64,000 nt of DNA from Phycisphaerae bacterium (lineage in GTDB: Bacteria > Planctomycetota > Phycisphaerae > Sedimentisphaerales > SM23-30): positions 9,320 through 73,319 of the forward strand of contig JAEIOG010000002.1 in the NCBI GenBank assembly GCA_016342495.1, given 5' to 3'. Position 1 is the first letter of the stretch, and every line of letters begins with the position of its first letter. A program made the position numbers and the translations under genes. Below, piece by piece: positions 12,041 through 63,999 of the stretch. Under the pieces are notes generated by a model. The model saw only the letters and a list, made by a program, of their open reading frames with translations. It made no database searches and was not told the DNA's origin.

Positions 12041-12370
12041 TAACTATAACCACAAGCGCCAGCGCGTGGACTATGCCCACGCTGTTTAAAATAGCTTCTC
12101 TTCCTTATCTTTAATCGTATTCCTGCGCTGGGTGCCAGTGGCCTGCCATACCTGTTCGCCGTGGCATCCGTTGGCACCCTCACGCTAACTCATGTAGAGA
12201 CAAGGCATGCCTTGTCTCCCTCTCCCCACACATCGCACCAACCCCATCCCCCCAGGGCTAACGCATGAAATTTAATTATGTCATTCCCGCGACGGGTGGC
12301 AGCCAGGTAGGATGGGTAAAACTTGTTTTGCCCATGCGGTTTAAAATTTTCATGAGCAAAAGCGAATACG
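12041..12370 (+). repeat. REP-like mosaic cluster downstream of the terminase gene
   Basis: CTATAACCACAAGCGCCAGCGCGTGGAC, GTAGAGACAAGGCATGCCTTGTCTC (12194), GTAGGATGGG..GCCCATGC (12307), CATGAGCAAAAGCGAATAC (12351). Confidence 0.8.
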
Positions 12371-13537
12371 GATTTTCTGTTGGTTTTTGCTGACGGCCGT
12401 TTGAAATTCTGCTGGCGATGGAATGTGTTCGAGTCGCTGGTTGATTGCGCCGGGTGCCCGCACCCGGTATGGCCAACGCTCACGCATCACCCGGACATGT
12501 TCGCTTATCGTCGCTCGCCGCCGAACATATTTATCCACCACAAAAACCATCCCGTCACTATCAACCTGAATCAGCAAACAAGCAAACGGATTACTAAAAC
12601 CAAAATCAATCGCCCGATACGTCTCAAGCCCTTCCCGATATGCCACATCACCAACATTTATATCCGCGTCAAACTCCGCGAAAACCAAATCTTGAACAGA
12701 AGGCCTCTTACATAACATCTCGCTTTGCCACCCCGCTTTGCTGGCCCGACGCTTTTGTGCTATCGCATCGTCAATTTTATAATGACCACCCGCCTGCTTT
12801 GCCCGCCCCCTGCAATCTGCCAACAATGCACACCGACTGCAACTCCGACCCACACATTTTTCAATCACATCAAACAAACACCATTTAAAAATCTCCGCAT
12901 CACCCTGCTGAGCATTTTTGATAATCTTACTCATCAAACCCGTTGGCCTGTGCATCGTCGACAACACTTCCAGCCTTGCCGATATATTATTTTTCGATTG
13001 TGTCACAAACTGCGCCGCCTGCCACACATCCTCGTCAAACATCTCCACCTCATCACAACGCAAACGCTGAACATGATGGCCCCGCACGCTCGATTGCGAT
13101 TGCGTCAAAGCCTGAACCGATGACCCATTGACAAAGCGACAAATGTTTTGCGTTATCTTGCCATCAACCATTTCTTCATAGCCACCCATTAGCCCCTGCT
13201 GCACATATTCATACATTCGCTGCGACTGCTGTTGGCTGCCGCCCAATATCCGCACCTGACACCTCGGTAAAAAAACACATTCCAAAAGCGAAGCCGCCGC
13301 CGCCAACTGCGTCTTACCGCCACCCCGACAGGACCACACTACAATATCTTTATTGTCATTATTCAAAAGCGAATAACTCAAATAATCCAAAGGGGTATTA
13401 TGTTCCTTGCAAACCGAATTCACCGATAGCTTCAAACCCAAAAATGCCTCCGCATAAGCCGCCACCTGCTCACGACTACTAGGCCGACATCTCCGCAACC
13501 GCTCATACAACTTAACCTGACTACCTTCATCAAACAT
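12350..13537 (-). CDS. Phage terminase large-subunit-like protein, C-terminal nuclease domain apparently truncated
   Basis: Walker A SCRGGGKT, SVRG..V..LRCDEVE Walker B, LSTM coupling motif, VFAEFD and AIDFGFSNPFACL nuclease start; similarity ends at ..WPYRV (~12465); GGGAG RBS before ATG 13537. Confidence 0.8.
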   Translation of the reverse strand: MFDEGSQVKLYERLRRCRPSSREQVAAYAEAFLGLKLSVNSVCKEHNTPLDYLSYSLLNNDNKDIVVWSCRGGGKTQLAAAASLLECVFLPRCQVRILGGSQQQSQRMYEYVQQGLMGGYEEMVDGKITQNICRFVNGSSVQALTQSQSSVRGHHVQRLRCDEVEMFDEDVWQAAQFVTQSKNNISARLEVLSTMHRPTGLMSKIIKNAQQGDAEIFKWCLFDVIEKCVGRSCSRCALLADCRGRAKQAGGHYKIDDAIAQKRRASKAGWQSEMLCKRPSVQDLVFAEFDADINVGDVAYREGLETYRAIDFGFSNPFACLLIQVDSDGMVFVVDKYVRRRATISEHVRVMRERWPYRVRAPGAINQRLEHIPSPAEFQTAVSKNQQKIRIRFCS

Positions 13538-13568
13538 ATCAATTCTCCCAATAATAAAATCATTCCAG

Positions 13569-13770
13569 GTAGGATGGGCTCTGCCCATGCCGTTTCAAAC
13601 ACCATGACCACAACCAACACCACAACCCAGCCCGCCTACTAACACCCACCAATCACCCACAGCATATCAAACCATCGCAAACACCACCTATAACCACAAG
13701 CGCCAGCGTGTGGACGTCAAACCCATGAACAAAGCGAATACCACAACCAACCCGTCACCTAACACCAACC
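13569..13770 (+). repeat. REP-like mosaic (GTAG REP plus composite modules)
   Basis: GTAGGATGGGCTCTGCCCATGC; CACAACCCAGCCCGCC.ACTAACAC; CTATAACCACAAGCGCCAGCG.GTGGAC; CATGAACAAAGCGAATACC. Confidence 0.8.
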
Positions 13771-13960
13771 GTAACATTTTAGCGATCTGGAGCAAAACAG
13801 CACGAAGCGGTATCGCCGTGCTAAGGCACTATGCTACATTACATGATGATTAAAGTGATTTTAGCATTAAAACACAATTTGCGTTTTTTAGCTGGGCGCT
13901 GCCGCTACCAGCTGTTTGTTGGTCAATTGTCGCCTTTGCTACATGTCGCTAAAATATTAC
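13771..13960 (+). mobile_element. 190-bp MITE, copy 1
   Basis: TIRs GTAACATTTTAGCGA / TCGCTAAAATATTAC; exact 8-bp target duplication CACCAACC (13763-13770 and 13961-13968); near-identical inverted copy at 21619-21808. Confidence 0.92.
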
Positions 13961-13980
13961 CACCAACCAATACAATTTCC

Positions 13981-14060
13981 AGCCCGAAGGGCTAACACAC
14001 CACAGCCCAGGGCAACGCCCTGGGTATACACCCCCAAAAAAATCCACGCCCTGAAAGGGC
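13981..14060 (+). repeat. REP-like element GCCCGAAGGGC...CCCAGGGCAACGCCCTGGG...GCCCTGAAAGGGC
   Basis: Three GC-rich hairpins; related copies at 14656 and 15614. Confidence 0.75.
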
Positions 14061-14136
14061 AACATAAAACATATTCATTCCTCACTTTGAAAACAAACCC
14101 TACCACCCACAATCACATACCATTACCAAACAATCA

Positions 14137-14421
14137 TTACTGGGGGACATAAGAATTCTTAAAAGCCTCAAATTCACTACCAGCGCCATTATTACATGCA
14201 ATTTTTCCAGCCATTATCATATCGGAATCATTCATTATATCACTGCAATTACCCCAATTATGAACAATTGCCCTGCAAGCCAAAATTCCCCATCTTTTAC
14301 CTAATGTTTTAATGCTATCTTCAACAACAGGTATCGCATCACTTTGATAACCGTTAAGACAAATTGCTAATATACATTTATATCTTGCTTCTATCCAGTT
14401 AGTTTTTTTGGTATAAGCCAT
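14137..14421 (-). CDS. Small Cys-containing orphan ORF or gene fragment
   Basis: 94 codons, no clear RBS, starts just after the GTTAAC palindrome; no family recognised. Confidence 0.4.
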   Translation of the reverse strand: MAYTKKTNWIEARYKCILAICLNGYQSDAIPVVEDSIKTLGKRWGILACRAIVHNWGNCSDIMNDSDMIMAGKIACNNGAGSEFEAFKNSYVPQ

Positions 14422-14443
14422 TTTGTAATATTCGGCGAGTGAC

Positions 14444-14468
14444 AGCGGTTAACTCGTTAACCGATGGA
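14444..14468. repeat. CGGTTAAC-NN-GTTAACCG palindrome
   Basis: AGCGGTTAACTCGTTAACCGATGG. Confidence 0.75.
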
Positions 14469-14653
14469 AAACTCATCCAAACCACAATAACCTAATCTAT
14501 GCAATATGTAGGACATGCATCCTGCTTGTCCATATTTCAACCATGAACAAAGCGAACACTCTCCCCACTCATTGCAAGCAAGCCTTATTATTCCATACTA
14601 AATATTACACAAACAAATCAAAAAAAAATTCCCCACAACCACTAATCCACCCT

Positions 14654-14763
14654 ACGGCCCGAAGGGCCAACACAACTCAGCCCAGGGCAAAATGAACAAA
14701 GTGAATGTCGCCCTGGGTAAACCTCCCCTCTCTTAAATTTAAAAAACCATGAGCGAAGCGAAT
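14654..14763 (+). repeat. About 110-bp direct repeat, copy 1 (downstream flank of lipoprotein gene)
   Basis: ACGGCCCGAAGGGCCAACACAACTCAGCCCAGGGCAAAATGAACAAAGTGAATGTCGCCCTGGGTAAACCTCCCCTCTCTTAAATTT.AAAACCATGAGCGAAGCGAAT; near-identical to 15613-15721. Confidence 0.9.
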
Positions 14764-14796
14764 CCCGAGGACCCAGTCTCAACCGCAAATAACACA

Positions 14797-15312
14797 TTAA
14801 TCTACAAAAGCGGCTTCGCCTTCGATGAAACTATTTTCAATGTCTGGATAATCACCAAATGGATCAATGGTAAAATAATGCATTAATTTATCTACTGCAA
14901 CTTTATATCCAGAATATTTTTCATGATTCATTATTTTGCCCATAATAAATATTTTAGGCGTAACATTCATGTGTCCAGCATCGACAGCATCAATAATCAC
15001 TATTTCAGTGCCGGCATCGATAATATCAATTATTTTATACTCATCGCCACCATCTGGCCCATGCCACTGCCCCTTTCTGAATAGTTCCATATATTCTTCT
15101 TTATCACCCACCAATCCAGCTACGAAATAATAATCACTGAACATATCTTTATATCTACCAAAAAACATAGGCGAAGTAAGCACAAGTTTATGGCCTACAT
15201 ATTTCTTGAATACCAATTGCTGAGCTTCCGGGCAAGGCCGCGAAATGCTGCACGAACAAAGAACCAAAGGCAAAATAAGCAATATAGCTAAAATCATAAT
15301 ATTTTTACGCAT
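14797..15312 (-). CDS. Orphan lipoprotein of unknown function
   Basis: MRKNIMILAILLILPLVLCSC lipobox signal; GAGG RBS; AT-rich. Confidence 0.75.
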   Translation of the reverse strand: MRKNIMILAILLILPLVLCSCSISRPCPEAQQLVFKKYVGHKLVLTSPMFFGRYKDMFSDYYFVAGLVGDKEEYMELFRKGQWHGPDGGDEYKIIDIIDAGTEIVIIDAVDAGHMNVTPKIFIMGKIMNHEKYSGYKVAVDKLMHYFTIDPFGDYPDIENSFIEGEAAFVD

Positions 15313-15612
15313 AATAACTTCCTCTGTAATATTTATTTTAATACGCAGTCATCTATCCGAATTATCTACTAATAAATTCACATCCTAATATAACAAATCC
15401 AACATAAAAAACAATCCCAAATAAAAGCGAAGCAAAATAATTTCAACAAGAGCGAAGCGATTTCCACCAAACTCAAATTGTCATCCTCGCGCAGACGAGG
15501 ATCCAGCCAAACCTATCCAAAATAACAAACTCACAATAAGTATCCCAAACATCCTGCTTGTCAACATTTCAACCGTGAACAAAGCGAACACGTTACCCAC
15601 TAATCCCACCCC

Positions 15613-15790
15613 ACGGCCCGAAGGGCCAACACAACTCAGCCCAGGGCAAAATGAACAAAGTGAATGTCGCCCTGGGTAAACCTCCCCTCTCTTAAATTTT
15701 AAAACCATGAGCGAAGCGAATACCACAACCCACCCCGCCAACTAACACCCACCAATCACTCGTAGCATATCAAACCATCGCAAACACAAA
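15613..15790 (+). repeat. About 110-bp direct repeat, copy 2, plus composite mosaic
   Basis: Near-identical to 14654-14763, followed by CCACAACC..CCCGCCAACTAACACCCACCAATCAC..AGCATATCAAACCATCGCAAACAC. Confidence 0.9.
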
Positions 15791-15796
15791 TAATTT

Positions 15797-15862
15797 AAAA
15801 CAAAGTCGCCCAGCGACACCGCCTCTTACTCGCTTACTCTCTTGCTCTCCTACTCTCTTACT
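15797..15862 (-). terminator. Duplicated terminator-like element preceded by AGTAAGAG octamer repeats, copy 1
   Basis: Minus strand: about five AGTAAGAG-like units, then GTCGC-TGG-GCGAC-TTTGTTTT; 24-bp core identical at 16288-16311. Confidence 0.55.
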
Positions 15863-16260
15863 CACCCAAACGCCTTAGCCAACTTCACCAATATTGGCTT
15901 CAAATCCTTGTCGGCTATACCATAATCATTATCTTCTTTCTCTTTTTCCTGATTATCATCATTGCATCTTTCAATCATATCCAAAGCCGCCCGCCGTGCA
16001 ACATCGGGTTTATCCGAATTCAGCAGCCCAACCAGCGTCTCCGCCGCTATCGGGCCATACCGGGCAATCTTCACTCTTGTCTCCAATTGTGCCTTTCTAC
16101 ATAAGCAGGCGATTTCCCGATTGAAAGATTTGCTATTCATAACCCGCTCCAGTTGACCCGGTTTTAATTTATACTTTTCAATAATCTGCTCCTGCGTCAA
16201 TTTCCCTTCAAACAAATCAAACGCAACACTACAATGTTTACCAATCGATCTTCTTGCCAT
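15862..16260 (-). CDS. HTH protein, putative terminase small subunit
   Basis: N-terminal HTH-like segment, then F..EI...and A..A.ETLV.LL.S.K.DVARRAA.D.I helical motif typical of small-terminase-like proteins; lies upstream of the large terminase; GGGAG RBS. Confidence 0.55.
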   Translation of the reverse strand: MARRSIGKHCSVAFDLFEGKLTQEQIIEKYKLKPGQLERVMNSKSFNREIACLCRKAQLETRVKIARYGPIAAETLVGLLNSDKPDVARRAALDMIERCNDDNQEKEKEDNDYGIADKDLKPILVKLAKAFG

Positions 16261-16287
16261 AACAATATCTCCCAATCTCAGTAGTTG

Positions 16288-16345
16288 AAAACAAAGTCGC
16301 CCAGCGACACCACCTCTCGCTCTCTTACTCTCTTACTCTCTTCTT
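16288..16345 (-). terminator. Duplicated terminator-like element with octamer repeats, copy 2
   Basis: AAAACAAAGTCGCCCAGCGACACC followed by about four CTCTTACT-like units on +; overlaps the last codons of the GNAT-like gene. Confidence 0.55.
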
Positions 16346-17065
16346 CTTAATAAAATACACCGGCACACTACCCATCTGCTCGACAACAAATTCACATTTA
16401 TCCACAAAACTATCTTGCCGCTTATTTACATACTTACTCATAAAACGTTTTATCCGATAACACACCAATTCTTTTTCACTTTCACCCAGACCATCTATAG
16501 CTTCCATCAATTTTTTCCCACTAATCAAATCTCTATCCTTAATCTCCATCTCATCAAAAGTCGCCAACAATTTTTCATGCTCAGCCGACACGCCACCATC
16601 ATAGCGAATCATCCCGGCTTTTTCAAAAAATGGATTAATCCTTCCCATCACCGCCAGTGCTTCTACATATTTCGTCCCAGCCATATCCAGGGTCTCTTTT
16701 ACCAGCCAACTGCCCAGCGACATCCCGCGATATTGGGGCGCTATAATCACCCGACTTATACAACGCATTTCACTATTCAATAATTTCAATCCCGCCGACC
16801 TGTCCGAACCGCAATACCTGTTATCTGTTGCGACATTTCTCAACCGGCAATTTATCACCGGCATCGAATAAACTATCACACCCACAACTTCCCTTTTACC
16901 GCCTAACTTATAAACTAAGGTTTTGCGCTCAGAATAAATCGCGAAAACCTTGTCAACAAACCCTGGCCTGCCATTGCGATAATGAAAATCTTTCAAAGCA
17001 CCATAAGCTCCCATCCCCGCCGGCTCAATCACCAAACCATCATACAATGTACATCTTTTCACCAT
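16325..17065 (-). CDS. GNAT-fold acetyltransferase-like protein (phage ABC-ATPase-associated type)
   Basis: FHY motif, VVGVIVYS.P, ISRVIIAPQYRGMSLG acetyl-CoA-binding motif, EALAVMGRINPFFEKAGM. Confidence 0.75.
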   Translation of the reverse strand: MVKRCTLYDGLVIEPAGMGAYGALKDFHYRNGRPGFVDKVFAIYSERKTLVYKLGGKREVVGVIVYSMPVINCRLRNVATDNRYCGSDRSAGLKLLNSEMRCISRVIIAPQYRGMSLGSWLVKETLDMAGTKYVEALAVMGRINPFFEKAGMIRYDGGVSAEHEKLLATFDEMEIKDRDLISGKKLMEAIDGLGESEKELVCYRIKRFMSKYVNKRQDSFVDKCEFVVEQMGSVPVYFIKKKRVRE

Positions 17066-17071
17066 GACTTC

Positions 17072-17743
17072 TCACTTCCCCGGATAATACACATCGCAAT
17101 GACTGCCCAAATGTTTTATCATCACCACATCCGGCGCCAGGTCTTCCAGCATATCATCATGGCTGGTAGCTACCACAAATGTCGTTCCAAACCGGTTGGC
17201 AAACTTTCGCACATTATGAGCCACCACCGCCGCAGTCACCCGATCCAGCGTTGAGCAAAACTCATCGATAAAAATCACATCCGGATTAATCGACAATGCC
17301 AGTGCCAACTTAAACCGATAGCGTTGACCATCACTTAAATGCTCAGAATTTCTCAGCACCGCAAAGGCATCACTTAATCCAGCCATACTGAGCCAACTCA
17401 TAACATCACTCAAATGGTCATCAATAAAACAATCAACCAATGGCCTGCCGGTTGGCACTTCTAATTCTCCAAGATTAAGAATCTCTTTAAAACCGACACC
17501 CTTCTTTTTGGCATTAGCCTGCATCTGCTCATACAACATCTTAAATATCTGCGATTTACCGGCCCCGCTGCCACCGGTAATATAAACCACCTGACCAGAT
17601 TCGATTTTGACTTTGCAATTATCAACAACAATCATCTCCCGACCAGGTCGGTTGCCCAGACCAAACATCGACGAAACCGCCGCGACATTTGGCGATAATT
17701 TTACTTTGGTATCAAACTTCTTCGTTAAAACATAACTTGTCAT
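17072..17743 (-). CDS. Soluble ABC-superfamily ATPase with no linked permease
   Basis: Walker A ITGGSGAGKS, signature LSDGQRYR, Walker B IFIDEF..TLD, H-switch VATSHDD; GGAG RBS before ATG 17743. Confidence 0.85.
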   Translation of the reverse strand: MTSYVLTKKFDTKVKLSPNVAAVSSMFGLGNRPGREMIVVDNCKVKIESGQVVYITGGSGAGKSQIFKMLYEQMQANAKKKGVGFKEILNLGELEVPTGRPLVDCFIDDHLSDVMSWLSMAGLSDAFAVLRNSEHLSDGQRYRFKLALALSINPDVIFIDEFCSTLDRVTAAVVAHNVRKFANRFGTTFVVATSHDDMLEDLAPDVVMIKHLGSHCDVYYPGK

Positions 17744-17777
17744 AATAATCTTCTCCAAATTGATAACTTTTACTATA

Positions 17778-18248
17778 TTAGCAGCATCCCGCGAATCTTG
17801 CTGATTTTTCATTGAGGTTTTTATGTTCATTTCTGGCTTTGTGTTTTATTAGCCATTCATCCAAATAACAAAGTTGGCGATAAACTGTACTGACAGAAAT
17901 TTTTCTTTTCAATGCGATAGTTCGCCGCCCCTGACCTAACAAAAAATGGTCGTAGGCAATCAATAATTGATTGTCAGTGAACTGATTACGATTTCGCAAA
18001 AAACACATATAGTCGTCGCTCAATAATCTTTTTACCATTTTACGAATTTTCCTGGATATATTCGCCGGGGTGATACCAATTAAAATACCCAGTTGACTAA
18101 AACTGGCATTATGGGACAAGTGTAGCTCCAGAATTATCCGGTCTGGTGGGGCCAGAAGTTTCATTCTATTCATGATAATGTCATACTCTGCCAATTGCAT
18201 TTTTCGAAAATCAACTGATTTACTAATTTGATCTAATTTGCCAACCAT
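17778..18248 (-). CDS. Protein with two sigma-70 region-4-like HTH domains (putative regulator)
   Basis: LAPPDRIILELH....SFSQLG..IGIT..NISRKIRK..KRL and FTDNQ..IAYDHFL.G...RTIA....ISVSTVYRQL; AAGGAG RBS before ATG 18248. Confidence 0.65.
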   Translation of the reverse strand: MVGKLDQISKSVDFRKMQLAEYDIIMNRMKLLAPPDRIILELHLSHNASFSQLGILIGITPANISRKIRKMVKRLLSDDYMCFLRNRNQFTDNQLLIAYDHFLLGQGRRTIALKRKISVSTVYRQLCYLDEWLIKHKARNEHKNLNEKSARFAGCC

Positions 18249-18288
18249 AAAAACTCCTTTCAATACATTCTATATAATCAATACAAAT

Positions 18289-18316
18289 AGTTTGTTATTT
18301 ATATAACTAACAGACT
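18289..18316. promoter_or_regulatory. 28-bp imperfect palindrome, candidate operator
   Basis: AGTTTGTTATTTATATAACTAACAGACT (24/28 positions self-complementary), about 40 bp upstream of the HTH gene start. Confidence 0.55.
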
Positions 18317-18690
18317 TATGAAGTTTACAACAGATTTAGGGAAATGCAAAAAAAATTTAGAATTTTTATAAAAAAATATTAAAATTACTTGTTTATCTAA
18401 CTTTTTAGGGCATAATTAAGGGTATAGAGGGTAAATAATTAAACAGTTATTATTTAATAGAAGGCCCGGCCTGTGAATTAAATAACAGTTGTCGCAGTTT
18501 ATTTAGGGTATTTTTATGGTAAGTTTGTGTCTACTACTAATTTTTACATGTAATTGCATAATTTATACCCAAAGGGTATGAACTTTTTGGCAGGTCCAGT
18601 TTTAATGCCTTGCAATGCAAGAACTTATGTATTTAAGAATGGAAAATTTTAAGGGTAATCAGTATACAATGCTTTTCAACAGGAGCTAAT

Positions 18691-19476
18691 ATGTCTTTAG
18701 GTCAGATCATCAGACAAAAACGTGAATCATTAAAAATGACATTAGATGAAGTATCACGTCACGTGGGTTATTCAAAACCTTATCTTTCGACCATTGAAAC
18801 TGGGCGGGTCAAGAATCCGCCAGCTGATGATTTACTAATTAAGCTTGAGCAAACTTTGCAGTTTACTTCTGGTGATTTACTAAGGATGGCCCATTTGGAA
18901 AAGATGCCAGCTGATGTTCGCCAGGCCTTTGAAAACAATCAGGCTGAGGTGGAATACTGGCGCGGGTTGGTTCGGAAGCTGGCGGCGAATGATGATAATT
19001 TAGCGATTGAAATTGATGAAAAACACGGTCATTTTTTGGGAAAAAACGCAAATAACTGCCAACAAATGTCGATTCCGGGACTTTTGGTGCCCGTAATTAA
19101 TAAGGTTTCGGCGGGATATCCGGTGGATTATGACGATATGGGCTATCCACCTGGTGCGGCGGATGACTATGTACGCTGTCCGGATTTGCATGATGCTAAT
19201 GCTTTTGCGGTACGGGTAGTGGGTGATTCGATGGAGCCAAAGTATAAGCAAGGGGACATCATTGTGTTTTCACCAAATATAAATGTCAATAGCGGCGATG
19301 ACTGTTTTGTGCGGTTGACCGACCCGCATGAGACGACATTTAAGCAGGTGTTTTTTAATGGGGATGGGAAAGTACGTCTTCAGCCTCGTAATCATAAATA
19401 TGCGCCGATGGTATTGCCCGAAGAAAAGATTAATGGGATATATAAGGCGGTTATTCGGTATGAAACGATTACGTGA
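18691..19476 (+). CDS. CI/LexA-type repressor (XRE HTH plus S24 peptidase)
   Basis: N-terminal HTH_3 (SKPYLSTIETG), VSAG Ala-Gly cleavage site, VVGDSMEP catalytic Ser, TTFKQ catalytic Lys; AGGAG RBS. Confidence 0.92.
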   Translation: MSLGQIIRQKRESLKMTLDEVSRHVGYSKPYLSTIETGRVKNPPADDLLIKLEQTLQFTSGDLLRMAHLEKMPADVRQAFENNQAEVEYWRGLVRKLAANDDNLAIEIDEKHGHFLGKNANNCQQMSIPGLLVPVINKVSAGYPVDYDDMGYPPGAADDYVRCPDLHDANAFAVRVVGDSMEPKYKQGDIIVFSPNINVNSGDDCFVRLTDPHETTFKQVFFNGDGKVRLQPRNHKYAPMVLPEEKINGIYKAVIRYETIT

Positions 19477-19504
19477 TTTTGTTTTATTTTTGTTATTTTT
19501 TTGT

Positions 19505-20346
19505 GGCGCTGGTTTGATATGCTGCGGGCGATTGGTTGGTGTTAGTTAGCGAGCTGGGTTGTGGGATTCGCTTTGCTCATGGGTTTGAAGTCCACGTGCT
19601 GGCGCTTGTGGTTATAGTTTGTGTTTGGGTTTTATTTTACAGGGTGGGCAAAGTAGTTGCCCATCTTATGCGACAGTATCTGTTCAATGGTAATGCCGAC
19701 AATATCCTTTAGAGCTGTGGGCAGCATATGGGAATTTCCATCGGTTAACAAGTTAACCGCTGGGTGCCCGTCGCCGTTGAAAGATTATCAGGGGACGATG
19801 AATTGGATGAGGATTGAATTTTGTAGAAGGTATGAGGTATTCGCTTCGCTCATGAAATTTATATCAGCGTGGGCATGGCCCACCCTTTCGTTGGTAGAAT
19901 TGTTTGCCGCTGGCTTTGTTCGCTGGTGCCGTTTGCTTCATGTTTGCGGTTGGGACAGAGTCTGCAAAATGAATTTGTCCATCCTACCTGGCTGGCTACA
20001 TTGGCTGGTCGGTGGGTTGGTGTTAGTTGGCGGGCTTGGTTGTGGGATTCGCTGTGCTCATGGGTTTGACGTCCACGCGCTGGCGCTTGTGGTTATAGTT
20101 TGTGTTTGGGCTAGTTTGATATGCTGCGGGCGATGGGTTAGTGTTGGTTGGCGGGGCTGGTGTTTGTGTTTGAGGCAAAATATGATAGCGGGATAGGTAG
20201 ATGATTTAGCCGGCCTATATGGCTGTGGGCAGCATATGGAAATCCCCGTCGGTTAAGAAGTTAACCGCTGGGTGTCCATCGTTTTTTTGGGTTCATTGAG
20301 ATATTTGATTGGGTTAAGATTAAGACGTTGCATGCAACGTCTCTAC
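19505..20346 (-). repeat. Long inverted-orientation REP-like mosaic with internal direct duplications
   Basis: Reverse complements of the 4.6/13.6/15.7-kb modules at 19505-19630 and 20010-20160; GCTGTGGGCAGCATATGG..TCGGTTAA.AAGTTAACCGCTGGGTG at ~19714 and ~20222; AGACGTTGCATGCAACGTCTCTAC at 20323. Confidence 0.85.
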
Positions 20347-20379
20347 AATTTGGTGGTGTAGCCGAAAAGGAGTAAGGTA

Positions 20380-21546: not shown

Positions 21547-21618
21547 TAATAAATCCTGGTAGTTAAGGTGAGCGGTAAACTATCAAAGGTTTGGAGAGTT
21601 ATCAGAGTAAAATTATTG

Positions 21619-53815: not shown

Positions 53816-53835
53816 TTGATAAAACTAAAATATTG

Positions 53836-56141: not shown

Positions 56142-56229
56142 ATTTTACTCCAATATTCTAGCTTTTATGCTATATTTAAAGGCAAGTTTATCACGTATAC
56201 AATTATTCTAGCACTTTTGGGAACTCAAT

Positions 56230-57318: not shown

Positions 57319-57390
57319 CCAGATTTGGCAAGTACATCATACCTGTCTGGAACATCAGGATTAATTTGCAAATTGTGAGCTTATAGGAAA

Positions 57391-57874
57391 ATGAGGGATC
57401 TCAATGAGTTAAATATGAATTTTTATGGTTATCCAATGGATGCTCCTATAGCTCCTACAAAGCCTGAAATTGAGGATTTTCAAATAGAATTTGGTATTGA
57501 ATTGCCAAAAGCATATATTGAATTTCTGGAATTTTCGAATGGGTGGGGGTTCTTCTCAACTTAATTGTTTTGTGTCAGTGGAGGCTGAGTTTAATGATGT
57601 TTGGGCTATTGATTTGTTTTACTCTTTGACCACTGATGGTCCATACTGTATTAATCTTAAAAATGCAATGCAAACATATGGCCCACGCATAGGAGATAAT
57701 TGTTTGCCGATTGCATGTGATGGTGGGGATAATCAGATATTCTTAAACTTTAAATTTCAACCAGCAAAGGTACAATTATGCATTCATGATGAATGTTTCA
57801 AAATAATTGATGTTGCTAATTGCTTTGAAGATTTCATTGATAGGTTATATTTGGAGCCTGAGTTAGATTTTTAA
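57391..57874 (+). pseudogene. SMI1/KNR4 (SUKH) family protein split by a one-base frameshift
   Basis: ATG 57391 gives ...IEDFQIEFGIELPKAYIEFLEFSNG; the continuation GGSSQLNCF...PIACDGGDN.I....VA..FEDFI..L is in another frame; the shift lies in GGGTGGGGG at 57541-57549. Confidence 0.82.
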
Positions 57875-58095
57875 TTTGTGTGTAGATCGAGGGGGGGGCG
57901 GTTACCTTGGTAACTAATTGTTAAAATTCAGGAATTAACGATAGAATGCAAATTCAATGGTTGAGGCTACCGCACCATCGGGCTTGCCAGGCAAGACCAA
58001 TGCCACCCCATTAATATATTGAGCCTAAACGAGATAACAGGCACCCGGCGACAGTCGAGTAAAATAATTGTGTCTAATTAATATATTTTGTGTAA

Positions 58096-59400
58096 TCAAA
58101 GCTTTTCTTTTTGTTGCTTTTTATAATAAACAACACAGATAAACAATAGCAATAGGATGCCAAAAGCTAACCAAAGCAGTGTCATATCAAAGTTTTCTTT
58201 GTTTTCTGATTCAATTTCATTGTCTTTAGTAATAGCAACTTCATCTACAGTTTCTTGTTGGCCAGAATCTGGATTCAATTGTTTAGTTTCTATTTCTTTC
58301 TCTCCAAGAGCATACTTTTTAACGCTTTCAAAGCCTTCATCTTGCCATGCACTTATATCAGGAACCTCAATATCCAATGGTTTTCCCTTGACAGTTTTAT
58401 CGATAATCCTTGATATCCCCCTAGGCACACGAACATCAAAAAACGAATCCGACACTTGGGGATTAAGAACAATACTACTATCATCAAATTCAACTTCTTC
58501 AATCACATCAATCTCACTTTTACCCGCAGCTAGCATTTTATATGTGATATCAACCCATCTCAATGGTCTATATACTCCCTCATGCAATTGTTGAATATTG
58601 AATGCCTCTATCTTTCGGATCAAGCAATTATTCTCAGGATGTCGATATTCTGTTTTTACTGACATATAGCCCATTTCTGGAATAACGGTGTGATATACGT
58701 CCCACAATCCCAAAGAAAAATCAGTCGGCTCTTGCTTAATAACGATAGCACTTTTCCCTTCAAAACTAGTTGTTTCAACTATTGAAACTTTATCTGAAGT
58801 ATAAAGTCGATTGGGCAATCCTGCCCACTGACTTGTAAAATGAAGATCATTTTTTATCATATTTGAATTAGCCGTATTCTCCCAATCAACTACTGCATGA
58901 GAGGCTATTTCACTAAAGACCAATGTTTTTTCACCATCACATACATAAGTTACCGGTAGATACTTATCTGTAGAATCCCAGTCTAGAATCTTGTAAGAGT
59001 ATCGGTTATTTTTTCTATCAATCACCCCTTCATATCGTTCGGTATTTACGGTATAACCATTATTGTTTTTGACTTGCTCAATTCTAATGAGCATTGCCTT
59101 TCTCATTTTATCTTTCTCACCTGTTGATAATGCTCCGCCTTCTATAAGAGCTTCATACCGTTTTTTAATATTCTCTTCAGCATTTTCCCCAGCATTAGTT
59201 TTAATTATTCGCGTAAAAGAACCTTTAAAACTCTGGGCCTTGCTATTGGCTTCAATCATTTTCAAAGCAATATCTGTAGCACTAATACTTTCACTTCCAA
59301 CAGCCAAAGTTAATCGTGCCCCATTAATTAATACCATAATAAAAAAGATAGGCAACACCCTTTTAAAAACAACAAAGACATACATTTTAAAATTTTTCAT
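58096..59400 (-). CDS. Hypothetical exported protein with C-terminal TM anchor
   Basis: Signal-like N-terminus, beta-rich body ending LNPQVSDSFF, acidic linker, TM, YYKKQQKEKL tail; AT-rich. Confidence 0.75.
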   Translation of the reverse strand: MKNFKMYVFVVFKRVLPIFFIMVLINGARLTLAVGSESISATDIALKMIEANSKAQSFKGSFTRIIKTNAGENAEENIKKRYEALIEGGALSTGEKDKMRKAMLIRIEQVKNNNGYTVNTERYEGVIDRKNNRYSYKILDWDSTDKYLPVTYVCDGEKTLVFSEIASHAVVDWENTANSNMIKNDLHFTSQWAGLPNRLYTSDKVSIVETTSFEGKSAIVIKQEPTDFSLGLWDVYHTVIPEMGYMSVKTEYRHPENNCLIRKIEAFNIQQLHEGVYRPLRWVDITYKMLAAGKSEIDVIEEVEFDDSSIVLNPQVSDSFFDVRVPRGISRIIDKTVKGKPLDIEVPDISAWQDEGFESVKKYALGEKEIETKQLNPDSGQQETVDEVAITKDNEIESENKENFDMTLLWLAFGILLLLFICVVYYKKQQKEKL

Positions 59401-59611
59401 TTTTTTTCCTTTAATAAAAGCTCAACCAATTTATACAATTTTTATAACTGCATACAATATTGAAAATAGGAATCACATAGAGTTAGCTTCAATTTACTAT
59501 AACTAATTAAAATATAATATTCTACTGACCATATATTTTTTATTTAATTAACAAGCACTAACTGTTGCTGAATTAGAATATCCGGCGTTAGGTAAAAATG
59601 TCTTCTCATAA

Positions 59612-60835
59612 TTATATTTTCAATTTTCTTTTGTAAAAGAATAAAACAATAATAAATACCAAAACAATGGCAGTAATAATATAAAGCAAATAACTATCGT
59701 TTGGTTCATTATTCTCTTTGTCCTTTTCTACTGCTTCTTGAGAAGGCTCTGTTTCTTGAGTTTCGTATACTTGTAGCGAGGCCCCTTTTTGTGGCTTAGC
59801 TAATGGTTCATCGGTTTTTGGCGGCGTTGTCGCTTTAGTTACTTCATTAAATGAAGGGTTTGCAAGATCAAAACGATCTTTACCTTCATAATAATATCCT
59901 GTTTTCAAAATTGTGTCTGAAACATCGTCGCCATTTTTTACACCTAAACTTTCTAATTCAAACTCAGAATCAGGGATTGTTTCATTTATTTGATTGTTGG
60001 CAAATCTAACCTTGTAAGAATTTATCTTTGTTCCCCCATATTTCATTATTGTTTCCATAGTATAAAAAAATGTTTTGGGGACCCAAACACCATTGTGCTG
60101 TTCATATGACCAGTTTCTGTCTTCTATATTTTTCCCCCCGATTCCTATATATTGAATCAGAGCTCCACTTTTTGATATGTCAAATGTATGCCGATCAATT
60201 AAATCGCCACTTGTTGCTTCTAAAATAACCAAATCGCCTTCTTGCCACACCTTTACATCTGACAATTCAGGGTTGTTTGCCTCATGATAATAAAACATTA
60301 ACCTTACCGCCAAATCCCTTTTTTTATTTGTAAGATACCACATAGGATCAAATGTAGTTGTATATGTCGATTGGTCTGCTTCACTCAAGGGCCATATAGT
60401 CAAACTTTTTTTTCGTTCTCCATTATCAATAGTATAGTAGTTTTTGTATCGATAAAATCTATTACCTCTTTTCATTTCATTATGACGTTCTCGCTTTTCT
60501 CCAGCTATCAACTTCCCTGCATCATCAAGTATGTCAAGTTTATCGTTCGACATTGACCATCTACTAGCTTCTTGTTTTTTCGAAAACCAGAACTCTGCAG
60601 AATATTCTTCTCTGCGAGTGATATTTCCATTTTCTTCCCACAAACGTTCAATCTTAGCACTACCTTGCCAGTATCTAATGCTTTCCTTATTCTCTTTTAT
60701 CATCGTTGCTGTTTTTTTTAATAAATCTAAATCACCCTCAACTTTTGCTATAAGGTCACTGCATAGACCGTGGATTAATACAAATGAAAGTAATAATAAA
60801 GACACCTTTTTCTGGATAGTATTTATTGAATCCAT
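59612..60835 (-). CDS. Hypothetical exported protein with C-terminal TM anchor (same architecture as neighbour)
   Basis: Signal peptide, NGVWVPK..and INETIPDSEF LolA-like end motif, linker, TM, YKRKLKI tail; AAGGA RBS before ATG 60835. Confidence 0.75.
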   Translation of the reverse strand: MDSINTIQKKVSLLLLSFVLIHGLCSDLIAKVEGDLDLLKKTATMIKENKESIRYWQGSAKIERLWEENGNITRREEYSAEFWFSKKQEASRWSMSNDKLDILDDAGKLIAGEKRERHNEMKRGNRFYRYKNYYTIDNGERKKSLTIWPLSEADQSTYTTTFDPMWYLTNKKRDLAVRLMFYYHEANNPELSDVKVWQEGDLVILEATSGDLIDRHTFDISKSGALIQYIGIGGKNIEDRNWSYEQHNGVWVPKTFFYTMETIMKYGGTKINSYKVRFANNQINETIPDSEFELESLGVKNGDDVSDTILKTGYYYEGKDRFDLANPSFNEVTKATTPPKTDEPLAKPQKGASLQVYETQETEPSQEAVEKDKENNEPNDSYLLYIITAIVLVFIIVLFFYKRKLKI

Positions 60836-60891
60836 ATTTTTCCTTTCAAAAAAGACTAATCTCAGCATAGGCTAAGCACCATCGAACCCTG

Positions 60892-61479
60892 CTATTCTTT
60901 CAACACCATATCGATGCACATTACTGCGGCTACTATTAGTTGGCGGATGGGGTTATCGGTTGGGACATCGGGGTTGATTTCCAGGATATAATTGTCGGCT
61001 GTGGTGAACAATTCTTTGCCTAGGCCGGACCATTTTTTTGAGACATGGGCAAATTCATGGTCGCCATCGACGAAACGGAAATCCCAGCCAGTCCATTTTC
61101 CTTTGAGCATACAAACTTCATTGCCATCGCAATCCTGAACGGCGAACTTGCCACCGAAACTTAATAGTTTCTGCTGGAACATTCCGATCATTTCATCATT
61201 TTCATCAAAAACCGAAACTTTTGAGCGGAAAATCGAGATTCCACGTTTGACGCGTACAGCCTGATTGCCATCGGTATCCCGAACGGTTATATCAAATGGA
61301 GTCATACGTTTATAATCTGAAAAACGCAGCAGCTTAGTAATAAAACCGAGCTTCTCTTCACGACATTCCATGATAATCTGGCCAGTTTCCGGGGCAAGAA
61401 TATCAAAGTTGTTGGCGGCCTTGAACATGCCTACATGTTCTTTTACAAAAAACAAATTCTTTTCTAATACATTCAACAT
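60892..61479 (-). CDS. Scramblase / LURP-one-related (Tubby C-terminal-like) protein
   Basis: FFVKEH, TPF, LKGKWTGWDF, VSKKWSGLGKELFT.ADNY, A.MCIDMV. Confidence 0.8.
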   Translation of the reverse strand: MLNVLEKNLFFVKEHVGMFKAANNFDILAPETGQIIMECREEKLGFITKLLRFSDYKRMTPFDITVRDTDGNQAVRVKRGISIFRSKVSVFDENDEMIGMFQQKLLSFGGKFAVQDCDGNEVCMLKGKWTGWDFRFVDGDHEFAHVSKKWSGLGKELFTTADNYILEINPDVPTDNPIRQLIVAAVMCIDMVLKE

Positions 61480-61500
61480 TATATTACTCCTATTATAAAT

Positions 61501-61543
61501 TAATCCCTGTTTGGTACCATTTTAACAATACCAACAGGGATTA
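61501..61543 (-). terminator. Hairpin ending the capsid-module operon
   Basis: TAATCCCTGTTTGGTA...TACCAACAGGGATTA inverted repeat downstream of the lipoprotein stop. Confidence 0.5.
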
Positions 61544-61569
61544 CAATAGTAGATATATGAAATTGTAAA

Positions 61570-62142
61570 TTATTTTTCCAGCATTACCAGTTTTTTTGTT
61601 GGCTGACTTTGGTTTTGCTGGGCCTGTTTGAAAGCTTGAATGCTTTGGGGGTTTTGAGCTTTGAATATTTCATTGCCTTGAACGATTTCCTTTAGAGCTG
61701 TGCTTTTTTCTTTGGCCACCTTCAAGGAATTAACGACTCTGCCACCTAATAGTCCGCCAAAGACACCAGCGATACCGATAGCCACCTGCAGAACATCATC
61801 AGCGATTGACCATGGGTCTGGTCTTTGCAGAGCTGAGTGTGATGCTCGAGTGGTTATATCATTATTTGCCTGGGACAAAATAGACTCAGCATTGTCCGAT
61901 TCGGGTAATTGCTCCGGCATGCCATAATAATTTAAGATCGCCGAACTCTGGGAGACTGACTGGTTGGTCAAATCCTGCATGGTCTGGGGATAATTTTGGT
62001 CATGGGCCAATTGAGCAGCGGTCTGAGTTGTGCGAAAATGCAGGTAAGCATTTTGTTTCTGGTCCTGATTGGGCGCGAGTCTCAGGTTGCCGCAGCCACT
62101 TATCATCAGTGGCATTGCTATTAATATCATTAACTTTTTCAT
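61570..62142 (-). CDS. Lipoprotein with a second hydrophobic helix near the C-terminus (phage module; spanin-like topology)
   Basis: Lipobox ISGC; VLQVAIGIAGVFGGLLGG segment; co-oriented downstream of the capsid gene. Confidence 0.7.
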   Translation of the reverse strand: MKKLMILIAMPLMISGCGNLRLAPNQDQKQNAYLHFRTTQTAAQLAHDQNYPQTMQDLTNQSVSQSSAILNYYGMPEQLPESDNAESILSQANNDITTRASHSALQRPDPWSIADDVLQVAIGIAGVFGGLLGGRVVNSLKVAKEKSTALKEIVQGNEIFKAQNPQSIQAFKQAQQNQSQPTKKLVMLEK

Positions 62143-62410
62143 TTATGTTATCCTTTATATAATCAATTTCTTTTTCTAATGCCGCAATACGGTATTGATG
62201 ATCGGTGTTCATTGCAGAGACGATTTTAAAATGTTCAGCCAACTGCATACTTGAATTATTCAATTGATTCAAATCGCACCTTATCAATACCAGTTGTTTT
62301 TGTAAATCACACCAGGTAATAGTTATCGCCGTTATCAGCGTGATGATATGCAGCATATTTCCGAGTGAAATTTCCCGTTTGAATTTCCAGGCTGAATTAT
62401 TGCCACCCAT
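62000..62410 (-). CDS. Single-TM plus coiled-coil protein (holin/i-spanin-like)
   Basis: AAGGAG RBS before ATG 62410; ISLGNMLHIITLITAITITW TM, then heptads ..HQYRIAALEKEI; 3' end overlaps the next gene by 143 nt. Confidence 0.6.
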   Translation of the reverse strand: MGGNNSAWKFKREISLGNMLHIITLITAITITWCDLQKQLVLIRCDLNQLNNSSMQLAEHFKIVSAMNTDHQYRIAALEKEIDYIKDNINEKVNDINSNATDDKWLRQPETRAQSGPETKCLPAFSHNSDRCSIGP

Positions 62411-62423
62411 TTGTATCTCCTTA

Positions 62424-63080
62424 TTATGAACGTTTAAGCCGAATGGAGCCGCCGGAGATTTCATGATTGCTTTGGCCATCATTATCGGTATCGAAAAGCA
62501 GTTTCACTTTAGATTTTAAATGGCCAAAGCTATGTCGATAATGCGATGACTTATCCCAGAACATCTGGCTGTCTGGCTGGGTATCAGCTATCGAAGCCAT
62601 CAGATAGATTAGCATATTAAAAACCGATAAACTAATCAGGTCATTACTATTGATAATCTGAGCGATATTGAATGAATCATCCTGGCCTTCATTAATATCA
62701 AAATACCGCAAAATTTCAGCGGCGGCATCGTGAGCCTGAGGGTCATAAGTTGTGATCGACCAGTTGATAGCGGTAGCGGTTGGCACGGCTGCTGCTACCT
62801 GGGAACTATCGCTACGTAAAACGGAGATTGTCAATTCAGTATTGGAGTTGACACTGACAATTTCGAAACAATTATTAATTGCCATATCAGTGGTCTGCAA
62901 AAAAATCACATGCCCGCTTTTGATACCGCTGTCAATAAAATTCGCTGTTGGCGAAGTGAAAGTTGTTCCTGCGGTGTTGCCGTCATTGCTGCTGCATAAT
63001 TTTTGACTTTCGAATGCCAAATCCATAAAGAGTCTGGGCTCGTATTTCAATAAATCGATATCTTTGGAAAATCCAGTCAT
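62424..63080 (-). CDS. Hypothetical protein downstream of capsid, putative head-completion/adaptor protein
   Basis: Position directly after the capsid gene; FS.D.DL..YEP start and K..HY...F.....FD.DNDG......IRL.R end resemble head-tail adaptors. Confidence 0.5.
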   Translation of the reverse strand: MTGFSKDIDLLKYEPRLFMDLAFESQKLCSSNDGNTAGTTFTSPTANFIDSGIKSGHVIFLQTTDMAINNCFEIVSVNSNTELTISVLRSDSSQVAAAVPTATAINWSITTYDPQAHDAAAEILRYFDINEGQDDSFNIAQIINSNDLISLSVFNMLIYLMASIADTQPDSQMFWDKSSHYRHSFGHLKSKVKLLFDTDNDGQSNHEISGGSIRLKRS

Positions 63081-63109
63081 GTTATTATCTCCCTTTCAAA
63101 AGTATAAGA

Positions 63110-63138
63110 TGTCGGCACCTGAGAGCCAGGTGCCGACA
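63110..63138 (-). terminator. Strong hairpin directly after the capsid gene
   Basis: TGTCGGCACCTG-AGAGC-CAGGTGCCGACA perfect 12-bp stem; followed on minus by TCTTATACTTTT. Confidence 0.7.
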
Positions 63139-63147
63139 ATGATAATT

Positions 63148-63999
63148 TTACGCAACTGACATATCGGTTATGACCCCATGTGCTTCTTCGTTACGGAACT
63201 CCAGAGTATACTCACCGATAATCTGGCCACACTCATAATCCCCTCCTGAAGGCAAAGGCTTATAATGGAAACTGCGACCACTTAGCGGTAAGACTGAAAT
63301 TCTGGAACTGTCAAGCAGCAGAACAGAATCTTTCGGCATCCATCGAGTTGGTATGATTTTACAGACACCAAAATCACTTTCATATATATCAACCATATTA
63401 GAAAATGTGCTGTCTTTTGGGCCATAAGAACGCAAGCCATACATGAAAGAATTAATCATTCTTTTTTGATAGCCATTGACCACAATCAAATCGATATTGC
63501 TGTTGCTGGCTTCCCAGATTTTTCGCAAGGCATAATTGATCTGATTTTCACTTAAGGAAGTGCCCGCGGGGAAACCGCTCTGGCCGGCTTTGAATATATT
63601 GGTTTGGATGGAATTGATAATGCCATTCATAGAGCGTGCGACATTGCTTGAACCTTGCGGGTCAGTTGCCGCCATCCCGCCATTGATGACAGTGTTTTCC
63701 AGGTCACGTAATAATTCACGGAGACGTTCCTGTTTTTGATAATCCAGTTCGTCTGCTAAGCCCAATTGCCGGGCGGCTAAGTCACTGCCGGAAACTTCAA
63801 CTGAAGATGTAAAAATCTGGGTATAGTTGCTTTTGCGAATGCGATTAGTAAACCGGGCTGCAGGCTTGTCGGCACCTTCATAGGCAAGGTTGCCCAGGAT
63901 ATGCAGGACTTGATTGTCGGTGAGGTCTTCGGCGGTTGTACCGGCATAGCCACGCTGAACGGTTAATATATTGCCGCTGACATTAGTTATCACCATCAA
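63148..63999 (-). CDS. SU10/DUF5309-like (HK97-fold) major capsid protein, 5' end outside window
   Basis: NYTQIFTSSVEVSGS, ELDYQK...L.ELLRDLE..VING, RSMNGI, YESDFG, G.IIGEYTLE.RNE.AHG.I. Confidence 0.85.
   Translation of the reverse strand: MMVITNVSGNILTVQRGYAGTTAEDLTDNQVLHILGNLAYEGADKPAARFTNRIRKSNYTQIFTSSVEVSGSDLAARQLGLADELDYQKQERLRELLRDLENTVINGGMAATDPQGSSNVARSMNGIINSIQTNIFKAGQSGFPAGTSLSENQINYALRKIWEASNSNIDLIVVNGYQKRMINSFMYGLRSYGPKDSTFSNMVDIYESDFGVCKIIPTRWMPKDSVLLLDSSRISVLPLSGRSFHYKPLPSGGDYECGQIIGEYTLEFRNEEAHGVITDMSVA

Follow-up and report, generated by a model that had tools for sequence, protein, structure and literature searches.

A stretch of 64,000 nucleotides from the genome of a Phycisphaerae bacterium (assembly GCA_016342495.1, contig JAEIOG010000002.1, positions 9,320 to 73,319 of the forward strand) carries two groups of phage-like genes: module A, where a cI-type repressor stands beside a packaging operon (a helix-turn-helix protein, an ATP-binding cassette (ABC) ATPase, a GNAT-like protein, a putative small terminase, TerS, and the large terminase, TerL), and module B, with a major capsid protein of the SU10 type and an adaptor-like protein. 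As described in a preliminary account of the same sequence, and confirmed by scans of the open reading frames (ORFs), about 42 kb of housekeeping genes lie between them. The question raised by this locus is what such a divided set of genes represents: debris of a prophage, parts of a mobile element, or, as that preliminary description proposed, a domesticated system analogous to the gene transfer agents (GTAs).

The reading ranked first, and considered rather probable as a whole, is that of an old, phage-derived machine for capsid building and DNA packaging, kept by the host and widespread in Phycisphaerae: a GTA-like viriform. In what follows, "the window" is the whole 64-kb stretch, corresponding to G000:C79:9320-73319, where G000 is the source genome; coordinates are window positions, unless preceded by a contig code. 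Compared genomes are indicated by G-numbers, extracted loci or contigs by L-numbers, and GTDB families, in coded form, by f-numbers.

Distribution, inheritance and layout of the genes

The orthologue search suggested in the preliminary description gives a consistent picture. Capsid, TerL and portal genes are each found in 32 of the 41 genomes of the same order (G000 included), mostly in one copy and at 45-70% identity; in high-quality genomes at order level, the capsid is found in 18 of 22, TerL in 21 of 22 and the portal in 19 of 22. At class level, 118 of 201 genomes carry the capsid and 129 TerL, and presence by family is nearly identical for the two genes: both are found in f6 (19 out of 19), f19 (9 out of 9) and f21 (5 out of 5), the corresponding figures being 0 of 9 for f11, 0 of 7 for f20 and 0 of 9 for f23. 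A sample of the phylum features the capsid in 40 of 301 genomes. TerL relatives at E <= 1e-50 number 1715 in a collection of 5.8 billion proteins.

Capsid orthologues outside the class, at 45-51% identity, belong to f79 (11 genomes listed), f62 (6 listed), f55 and f116. G081, of family f22, carries a full-length TerL, the capsid being undetected with the query used; the portal of G039 is represented by an 88-aa fragment only.

Trees of TerL, portal and capsid were built from 40-47 genomes of 17 families ("quick" LG+G4), and changes of family label along each tree were counted and compared to 200 shuffles of the labels, related genomes being non-independent samples in this count. Sixteen changes are needed for TerL (minimum 16; shuffled mean 36.7) and sixteen for the portal (minimum 16; shuffled mean 31.5). 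The capsid tree needs 19 (minimum 17; shuffled mean 35.8), and includes a group of viral contigs (4 rows) that contributes 4 changes by itself. For none of the three trees is the observed count reached in any of the 200 shuffles: all three follow the GTDB families, as expected from the vertical inheritance that the preliminary description had proposed to check.

Selection was evaluated by the pairwise ratio of nonsynonymous to synonymous substitution rates (dN/dS, NG86). Of 48 comparisons, 16 with 0 < dS < 1 were used; the other 32, either saturated or failed, were dropped. In 13 of the 16, dN/dS lies between 0.08 and 0.23, in line with the low ratio foreseen for a host-kept system. The single values are 0.083, 0.087, 0.141 and 0.281 for the capsid; 0.105, 0.120, 0.133, 0.169 and 0.391 for the portal; 0.079 and 0.230 for the adaptor; 0.093, 0.109, 0.113, 0.170 and 0.472 for TerL. 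It is very probable that these genes have been domesticated and are vertically inherited. Purifying selection, chromosomal fixation and lack of self-mobility, which mark GTAs and related viriforms, are all apparent from the sequences compared, the last of them from the window ORFs scanned and the distance between the modules; particles that package host DNA largely at random and deliver it to recipient cells, a further mark of GTAs, would be a prediction.

The same data bear on the possibility that these genes are the debris of defective prophages, devoid of host function in G000 and in its relatives. Forty sampled genomes from 17 families carry the genes at full length and uniform size, dN/dS is mostly 0.08-0.23 and the trees follow host families; neutral remains would not persist intact over class-level divergence. 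This explanation, very improbable overall, is already contradicted for the clade, and is possible for G000 alone, where TerL is truncated, tail genes are missing and foreign genes have been inserted. It also draws on six other genomes, in which the capsid gene is fragmented or interrupted, either by an internal stop or by dispersal into pieces kb apart (G017:C7:51618-54361, G170:C6, G231:C29, G055:C69, G172:C30, G156:C41): to judge from these genes, decay or disruption of the element has happened also in lineages other than G000.

As for layout, TerL adjoins the head genes in G048 and G122. In G048 the order is ABC ATPase, GNAT-like gene, TerL, portal, scaffold, capsid and adaptor, followed by tail genes; this adjacent arrangement is likely the ancestral one. 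The distance between TerL and capsid is 9 kb in G157 versus 688 kb in G037, a member of the same genus, and reaches 982 kb in G031; in complete genomes the two modules are up to 688-982 kb apart. The block formed by portal, scaffold, capsid and adaptor is found in most of the 80 loci analyzed (74, 65, 80 and 74, respectively), the adaptor-like gene following the capsid gene in 74 of them. Of the 13 host genes that flank module B in G000, none is conserved beside the capsid in these loci.

The spacer between the two modules of G000 consists of ordinary host genes (hpf, ptsN-like, PtsI, RNase E/G, D-Tyr deacylase, a two-component system, purD, mutM), and 11 kb of host genes, including Rho, CoaE and FKBP, lie to the left of module A. 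Integrase families find no match among the ORFs scanned in G000, which cover both modules, the spacer and the left flank; no tRNA is present in the 64-kb window, and no replication-gene family is found at either module among the window ORFs scanned. Tail genes are absent by tblastn, so that the preliminary description was right in reporting neither integrase nor replication nor tail gene. The module genes are single copy across the assembly (5.42 Mb in 221 contigs, 41% GC, 95% complete and 1.7% contaminated by CheckM-type estimates; contig C79 is 94 kb long), with the exception of a 171-aa lipoprotein. An intact temperate prophage is not what the window contains, given that 42 kb of host genes separate the modules and that no tail, integrase or replication genes are found in the ORFs scanned. 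Nor is a phage satellite, comparable to the capsid-forming phage-inducible chromosomal islands (cf-PICIs), recognizable: integrase, tRNA and replication module are not found in the window, and the distribution follows host families. The arrangement of the genes supports the view that they are non-excising and split.

Phage relatives, the tail block and possible function

Among 50,697 phage records, the closest capsid match is 33% identical, and the closest TerL match among cultured phages reaches 24-25%. Intact temperate phages, which the preliminary description had considered as possible closest relatives, are not such: the sequences support chromosomal orthologues in this role. A profile scan of IMG/VR yields 83 capsid relatives: among the 80 listed of these 83, three are at least 60% identical and the remaining ones at most 38%. 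One of the entries at 60% or above is a host-type cluster flagged as viral (L124/L191); the other two, together with a fourth contig whose capsid is 50% identical, have the character of mobile elements. Lone capsid genes, 50-63% identical to the host type, are found at L122:5970-7121, L123:7023-8180 and L126:2855-4021, in IMG/VR contigs of 62, 41 and 39.5 kb; each is full length and stands away from portal or adaptor genes in the 14-17 kb of each contig examined. L122 and L123 match PHROGs for a replication initiator, RecT, an exonuclease and a methylase, and L123 also carries its own TerL; the neighbors in L126 were read by eye from ORF starts only.

A more distant relationship links module A to lytic phages. 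The ABC ATPase is 37-42% identical to ATPases that two phages, Pseudomonas phage nickie and Rhizobium phage RHph_X66, encode upstream of TerL. In both, the annotation runs from ABC through a second "ABC" protein and a DNA-binding protein to TerL and portal, with an annotated capsid gene next in RHph_X66. The second "ABC" protein of nickie matches the GNAT-like protein of G000 (23% identity, E 4e-10); the TerS-like protein has no match to the nickie DNA-binding protein at the equivalent position. Since the gene order is shared with both phages, module A may be regarded as one coherent phage packaging unit, not as a chance neighborhood.

Repeated integration of a mobile element in Phycisphaerae, either a temperate phage lineage or a capsid-forming satellite, would account for the viral flag carried by one host-type cluster and for the capsid gene shared with three phage contigs. 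It is already largely contradicted, and appears hardly credible, as neither integrase nor tRNA nor replication gene is found at either module among the window ORFs scanned, the genes mostly occur once per genome, and as much as about 1 Mb can separate the modules. The identity values just reported, both for cultured phages and for IMG/VR, also speak against it, as do the trees of TerL, portal and capsid, all of which follow host families.

Many relatives of G000 feature about 7 kb of extra genes between the adaptor and a closing lipoprotein gene. This tail block encodes proteins of about 125, 260 and 265-390 aa, a variable gene product, and proteins of about 230, 600 and 113 aa. The protein of about 600 aa, t608, shows a baseplate hub fold of the VgrG/gp27 type (Foldseek E 5e-12); the variable gene, in L023, contains a right-handed beta-helix domain (PF13229, E 1e-7), as in tail spikes. 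The block adjoins the head genes in 15 of 41 genomes and is missing there in 24, among them G000; 2 could not be judged. At least 6-7 changes on the gene trees are needed to explain this pattern. In family f1, to which G000 belongs, the block is missing in four of the five other genomes sampled.

No tail-block gene, and with it no delivery device, is found in G000 by tblastn with two protein sets. Hub profile A1, run on whole genomes, finds only a distant 701-aa frame in G004 among G000, G004, G031, G037 and G029, and nothing in G157, G086, G122, G044 and G224, in scans devoid of a built-in positive control, for which the other hub scans serve as partial controls; overall, ten short-form genomes were searched whole, and nine of them give no match to the hub profile. 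Profile A2, also without a built-in positive control, matches none of five genomes. A different conserved tail module, downstream of the short forms, was sought by ORF clustering and rejected, none being found with a filter that drops genes in GC-rich genomes. Of the analogy with GTAs, as originally proposed, phage origin, split layout, lack of excision and inheritance with the host hold; the many genomes without a tail block do not conform to it.

Short forms remain under constraint: in pairs of tail-less genomes, dN/dS is 0.08-0.11 (G037-G157), 0.09-0.23 (G029-G040) and 0.08-0.17 (G056-G086, with no value for the adaptor). Because of these low values, a transfer role dependent on the tail cannot explain the constraint in these genomes; the repeated loss of the tail, with the remaining genes kept, speaks for a selected function that does without it, at least in part.

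These observations make room for a role of heads without a tail of their own, either in anti-phage interference, by packaging or cutting invading DNA or by competing in capsid assembly, or through DNA-filled capsids that borrow the tails of infecting phages, in the manner of capsid-forming satellites; gene transfer by means of the element's own tail would in that case be secondary, or a leftover from the ancestor. Such a role is unlikely, but ranks second, far ahead of inert debris and mobile elements. It agrees with the loss of the tail block, at least 6-7 times, from loci where capsid, portal, adaptor and TerL stay intact and constrained, with the retention of the adaptor, a docking surface for tails, in short forms, and with the self-cleaving S24 domain of the cI-type repressor; the lone host-type capsids of three phage contigs fit a conflict between phages and element. 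On the other side, no defense family is matched beyond a partial match of the ABC ATPase to mad3, the long form keeps its variable spike-like gene, as expected of particles that adsorb to cells, and the lone capsids come from three contigs, seen over 14-17 kb of each. A more specific version, slightly less likely still, sees the tail-less capsid and terminase machine as a cellular device that interferes with phage packaging or hijacks phage tails, phages answering with a decoy capsid subunit. It is suggested by the conjunction of head and packaging genes constrained after at least six tail losses with the presence of lone host-type capsids in phages that seem to infect the same hosts.

The GTA-like reading, ranked first, relies on a gene set (TerS/TerL, portal, scaffold, capsid, adaptor) that is what DNA-filled heads require. 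The variable spike-like gene of tailed lineages fits particles that adsorb to cells, as a GTA would. For a gene-transfer function in the tailed lineages, the chances are put a little short of even. Host control of the modules is suggested by the cI-like repressor, conserved beside the operon in one family (6 of 20 loci).

Under this reading, the ancestral unit would have been a cluster of about 17 kb, comprising ABC ATPase, GNAT-like gene, possibly TerS, TerL, portal, scaffold, SU10-type capsid, adaptor and a short tail block with hub and variable beta-helix spike. Integration and replication genes would have been lost, or never kept, and chromosome rearrangements would have split the cluster into two units working in trans. 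A signal relieving the cI-like repressor would allow expression of the operon; scaffold, capsid protein and portal would assemble into procapsids, into which TerS and TerL would pump DNA, the adaptor then capping the portal. In lineages with the tail block, the particles could deliver this DNA to other cells, as a GTA does. In G000 the machine would be a reduced one, most likely unable to package DNA.

A number of observations weigh against this reading. One is the constraint in tail-less genomes, 24 of the 39 judged, which tail-dependent transfer cannot explain. TerL is also found without a detectable capsid: in f13 (G045, G054, G063), all three genomes have TerL and none the capsid, and in the high-quality genomes G008, G015, G028 and G039 TerL is present and the capsid undetected with the query used; these lineages add doubt. 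The capsids of L122, L123 and L126, 50-63% identical to the host type, nest inside host clades of the capsid tree, so that exchange with phages does occur. In the pair G161-G175, dN/dS rises to 0.28-0.47 (three comparisons). The counts on the trees are to be read with the non-independence of related genomes and the use of coded GTDB family labels in mind. The assignments of TerS and of the GNAT-like protein, based on weak matches, are uncertain, and profile scans reveal neither endolysin nor holin families.

Genes of the two modules and state of the G000 copy

The features of the two modules are reported in Table 1. Gene calls in module A are based on Pfam and PHROGs, and the order of the operon, on the minus strand, runs from 18263 to 12350. 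The gene content given for this module in the preliminary description is borne out, by clear matches for repressor, ABC ATPase and TerL and by weak ones only for the helix-turn-helix, GNAT-like and TerS-like proteins.

Table 1. Location of the module genes and neighboring features, with the evidence for each assignment (HTH, helix-turn-helix)
Feature	Position	Strand	Evidence
Large terminase (TerL), truncated	12350-13588	-	phrog_2 E 1.9e-13; Pfam Terminase_6N below cut-off
Two unrelated low-GC genes (94 aa; 171-aa lipoprotein) between TerS-like gene and TerL	14137-15312	-	GC 0.34-0.36
Small-terminase-like (TerS-like) protein, weak assignment	15862-16275	-	phrog_2538 E 0.004
GNAT-like accessory protein	16325-17065	-	Pfam GNAT below cut-offs (E 3.7e-4); phrog_886 E 1.6e-8
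Soluble ABC ATPase	17072-17830	-	ABC_tran E 3.6e-14; phrog_293 E 2.2e-36
HTH / sigma-70 region-4-like protein, head of operon	17778-18263	-	weak, below cut-offs: Sigma70_r4_2 E 0.0074; TIGR02937 E 1.6e-5
Putative divergent intergenic control region	18264-18690	.	between cI-like gene and operon
cI-type repressor (XRE HTH, self-cleaving S24)	18691-19476	+	Pfam Peptidase_S24 E 6.7e-20; HTH_3 E 1.2e-8
190-aa lipoprotein closing the structural cluster	61570-62142	-	signal sequence ending ...SGC, by eye
Small protein, hydrophobic stretch then heptad-like sequence (by eye)	62000-62482	-	translation; overlaps lipoprotein gene
Head-to-tail adaptor-like protein, 218 aa	62424-63080	-	predicted structure and position
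SU10-type major capsid protein	63148-64000, cut by window end; full gene G000:C79:72470-73621, 384 aa	-	SU10_MCP
Scaffold	L001:1675-2223, past window end		reading on along contig
SPP1-type portal	L001:2246-3814, past window end		Pfam SPP1_portal E 8.6e-25

The capsid assignment is the firmest: the match to SU10_MCP (PF17236) has E 1.3e-72 for the part inside the window and E 5.7e-87 for the full gene (292 bits, with a cut-off of 24.1), and orthologues measure 379-393 aa in 40 other genomes. The model of the 218-aa protein has a pLDDT of 94.3, and many of its top VIA-align matches are neck or adaptor chains of phages, with middling Z scores (7-9.1); Foldseek finds no match for it in PDB at E <= 0.001. 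The two small proteins that complete module B look membrane-anchored from their sequences. A homologue of the one at 62000-62482 is found in 3 of 80 loci (for example L023:15379-15612), and in 15 of 80 a homologue of the 190-aa lipoprotein lies on the downstream side of the capsid; in most order-level relatives this closing lipoprotein follows either the tail block or, directly, the adaptor. The preliminary description of module B stands for the SU10 capsid, the adaptor-like gene and the two membrane-like proteins, the latter judged by eye; no lysis family in Pfam matches either of the two. A scramblase-like gene and two LolA-like genes (58096-61479) were considered as members of module B and rejected, being conserved beside the capsid in 0 of 80 loci.

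Past the window end, where portal, protease and scaffold genes had been anticipated, scaffold and portal lie directly upstream of the capsid, followed by host genes (UDP-sugar pyrophosphorylase family, MutS2-like); no protease gene is found beside them.

In module A, the cI-like gene adjoins the operon in 6 of 20 related loci, at 55-64% identity, all six from f1. It was also considered as a possible host LexA, and rejected, the canonical LexA being located on contig C180. An inverted repeat occupies 18443-18458 / 18477-18492 in the intergenic region; its arms, each of 16 nt and separated by 18 nt, are complementary at 81%, and it may represent an operator or have arisen by chance. In the 20 related TerL loci, the HTH/sigma-70-like gene is present in 3, the ABC ATPase gene in 11, the GNAT-like gene adjoins TerL in 11, and the TerS-like gene is kept directly upstream of TerL in 6 (tblastn). 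Family f1 keeps the full layout, with cI-like repressor, ABC, GNAT-like, TerS-like and TerL genes; a DUF502 gene beside module A is common to G014 and G000. The two genes located between TerS-like gene and TerL have homologues in none of the 20 related loci, where the TerS-like gene directly precedes TerL, and are seen as an insertion, outside the ancestral module. The 171-aa lipoprotein encoded there (14797-15312, minus strand) belongs to a multi-copy family, with two tandem copies on C27 (83-84% identity) and a fragment on C69. The ABC ATPase and the GNAT-like protein were also evaluated as a defense system by PADLOC, and this assignment was rejected, with a partial mad3 match for the ATPase only and none for the GNAT-like protein.

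The host-like composition reported earlier is found again: GC content of the module genes is 0.37-0.46, compared to a host mean of 0.424 (sd 0.033), TerL being the exception at 0.486, slightly over the host 95th percentile. GC skew is strong in the window (to -0.38 and +0.22) and tracks the direction of transcription, coding strands being G-rich; its sign flips near 18300, in the divergent region between cI-like gene and operon.

The terminase is truncated, as the preliminary description had noticed. It aligns with its relatives up to residue 364-379 or so, the last 115 residues, approximately, being absent: what remains is the ATPase part and the beginning of the nuclease part, without the motifs "FCDPAG" and "DH.IDALRYFF" that are conserved in the nuclease part of relatives. 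The combination of an ATPase with a complete C-terminal RNase-H-like nuclease, which defines a large terminase, is found in the relatives and not in G000. TerL measures 478-520 aa in sampled relatives and 466-588 aa in the best 119 non-self homologues, one partial record excepted, many of them with PF17289. In family f10 (G098:C98:10377-11390, G068:C81, G146:C56 and others), and in part of f14, TerL matches come in two or three pieces within a single frame of about 590-710 aa, which suggests insertions or extensions in the protein.

A frameshift in TerL of G000 was considered and rejected: with the last 135 residues of 20 relatives as queries, no credible match to the missing part is seen in 11001-14000, even at E up to 20, and the C-terminal query matches with E < 0.01 in this interval, among those listed, all overlap the retained part. 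Elsewhere in the genome, two chance-level matches are found and nothing more. Since no C-terminal remnant is present in other frames or downstream, the missing end is read as a deletion. The nearest known relative of this TerL is only 62% identical, and the truncation may be either recent or fixed. The terminal branch of G000 is long in the TerL tree (0.64, with a median of 0.37) and not in the portal tree, which is only a hint at relaxed constraint.

Among the sequencing runs listed for this genome none is of RNA. A DNA run from a marine sediment metagenome contains 29% of the sampled words, in short, low-depth contigs of a related strain; of those listed, none bridges the 3' end of TerL. Contigs of this strain diverge into unrelated sequence at 12291-12301, near the truncated end: the junction is a possible structural variant, resting on two low-depth contigs per side.

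Capsid, scaffold, portal and adaptor are all full length in G000. Nevertheless, given the loss of the TerL end, the disappearance of the tail block and the two foreign genes that split TerS from TerL, this copy is likely to be defective for packaging DNA.

Comparison with known systems and significance

As in GTAs of the RcGTA type, the Phycisphaerae genes for head and packaging are phage-derived, fixed in the chromosome, inherited vertically across a large clade and under purifying selection; integrase and replication genes are lacking, the genes occupy more than one locus, and the contiguous form measures about 15-17 kb. RcGTA capsid and portal belong to families other than SU10_MCP and SPP1_portal. 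The Phycisphaerae capsid and portal, of SU10 and SPP1 type according to Pfam, set the system apart from it and point to an independent origin. Moreover, TerL is unlinked from the head genes in most Phycisphaerae genomes, an ABC ATPase and a GNAT-like gene accompany it, and in most sampled genomes the tail block is missing. BaGTA of Bartonella, VSH-1 of Brachyspira and other GTAs not of the RcGTA type offer the parallel of a phage with its own, separate ancestry that was domesticated in a different phylum; in contrast to the Phycisphaerae system, BaGTA and VSH-1 are tailed and have been verified experimentally.

The cf-PICIs encode their own capsid, portal, adaptor and terminase, and no tail. 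In this they resemble the Phycisphaerae short form, with its head and terminase genes and no tail. They are, however, mobile and patchy in distribution, with integrase, att sites and replication genes, whereas the Phycisphaerae genes follow host families, with no integrase match or tRNA found in the window. Phages nickie and RHph_X66 (about 110-120 kb, lytic, Nickievirus-like and related) share the packaging order, with the ABC identity given above and matches to the GNAT-like protein (E 4e-10) and TerL (E 3e-13); they differ in being complete lytic genomes, with TerL identity of about 22-25% and unmatched proteins at the TerS position.

A full-text literature search, supplementary tables lying outside it, yielded no account of an element like this one from Phycisphaerae or from Planctomycetota as a whole. 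Passages of a 2024 review of GTAs list Bartonella, Brachyspira, Desulfovibrio and Methanococcus, "Planctomyc" not being found in them; in the same passages, verified GTAs are known from few lineages and their true frequency is posed as a question (PMC11841831). A preprint concerns alphaproteobacterial elements (10.1101/2022.02.18.481119).

In practical terms, IMG/VR classes at least one such cluster (L124/L191) as a viral contig, and among the best 120 TerL relatives those with a source name are nearly all labelled "hypothetical protein". If true, the tail-less device envisaged above would put domesticated virus parts to a use of a new functional class, apart from GTAs, tailocins and encapsulins. 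The reading preferred here, that of a GTA-like viriform, would add an independently domesticated capsid and packaging system, spanning much of a class of Planctomycetota and some further families, whose two halves, up to about 1 Mb apart, have yet co-evolved. The repeated loss of the tail, with head and terminase retained, is its unexpected part, and provides natural lineages with and without a tail, in which the purpose of the particles may be tested.

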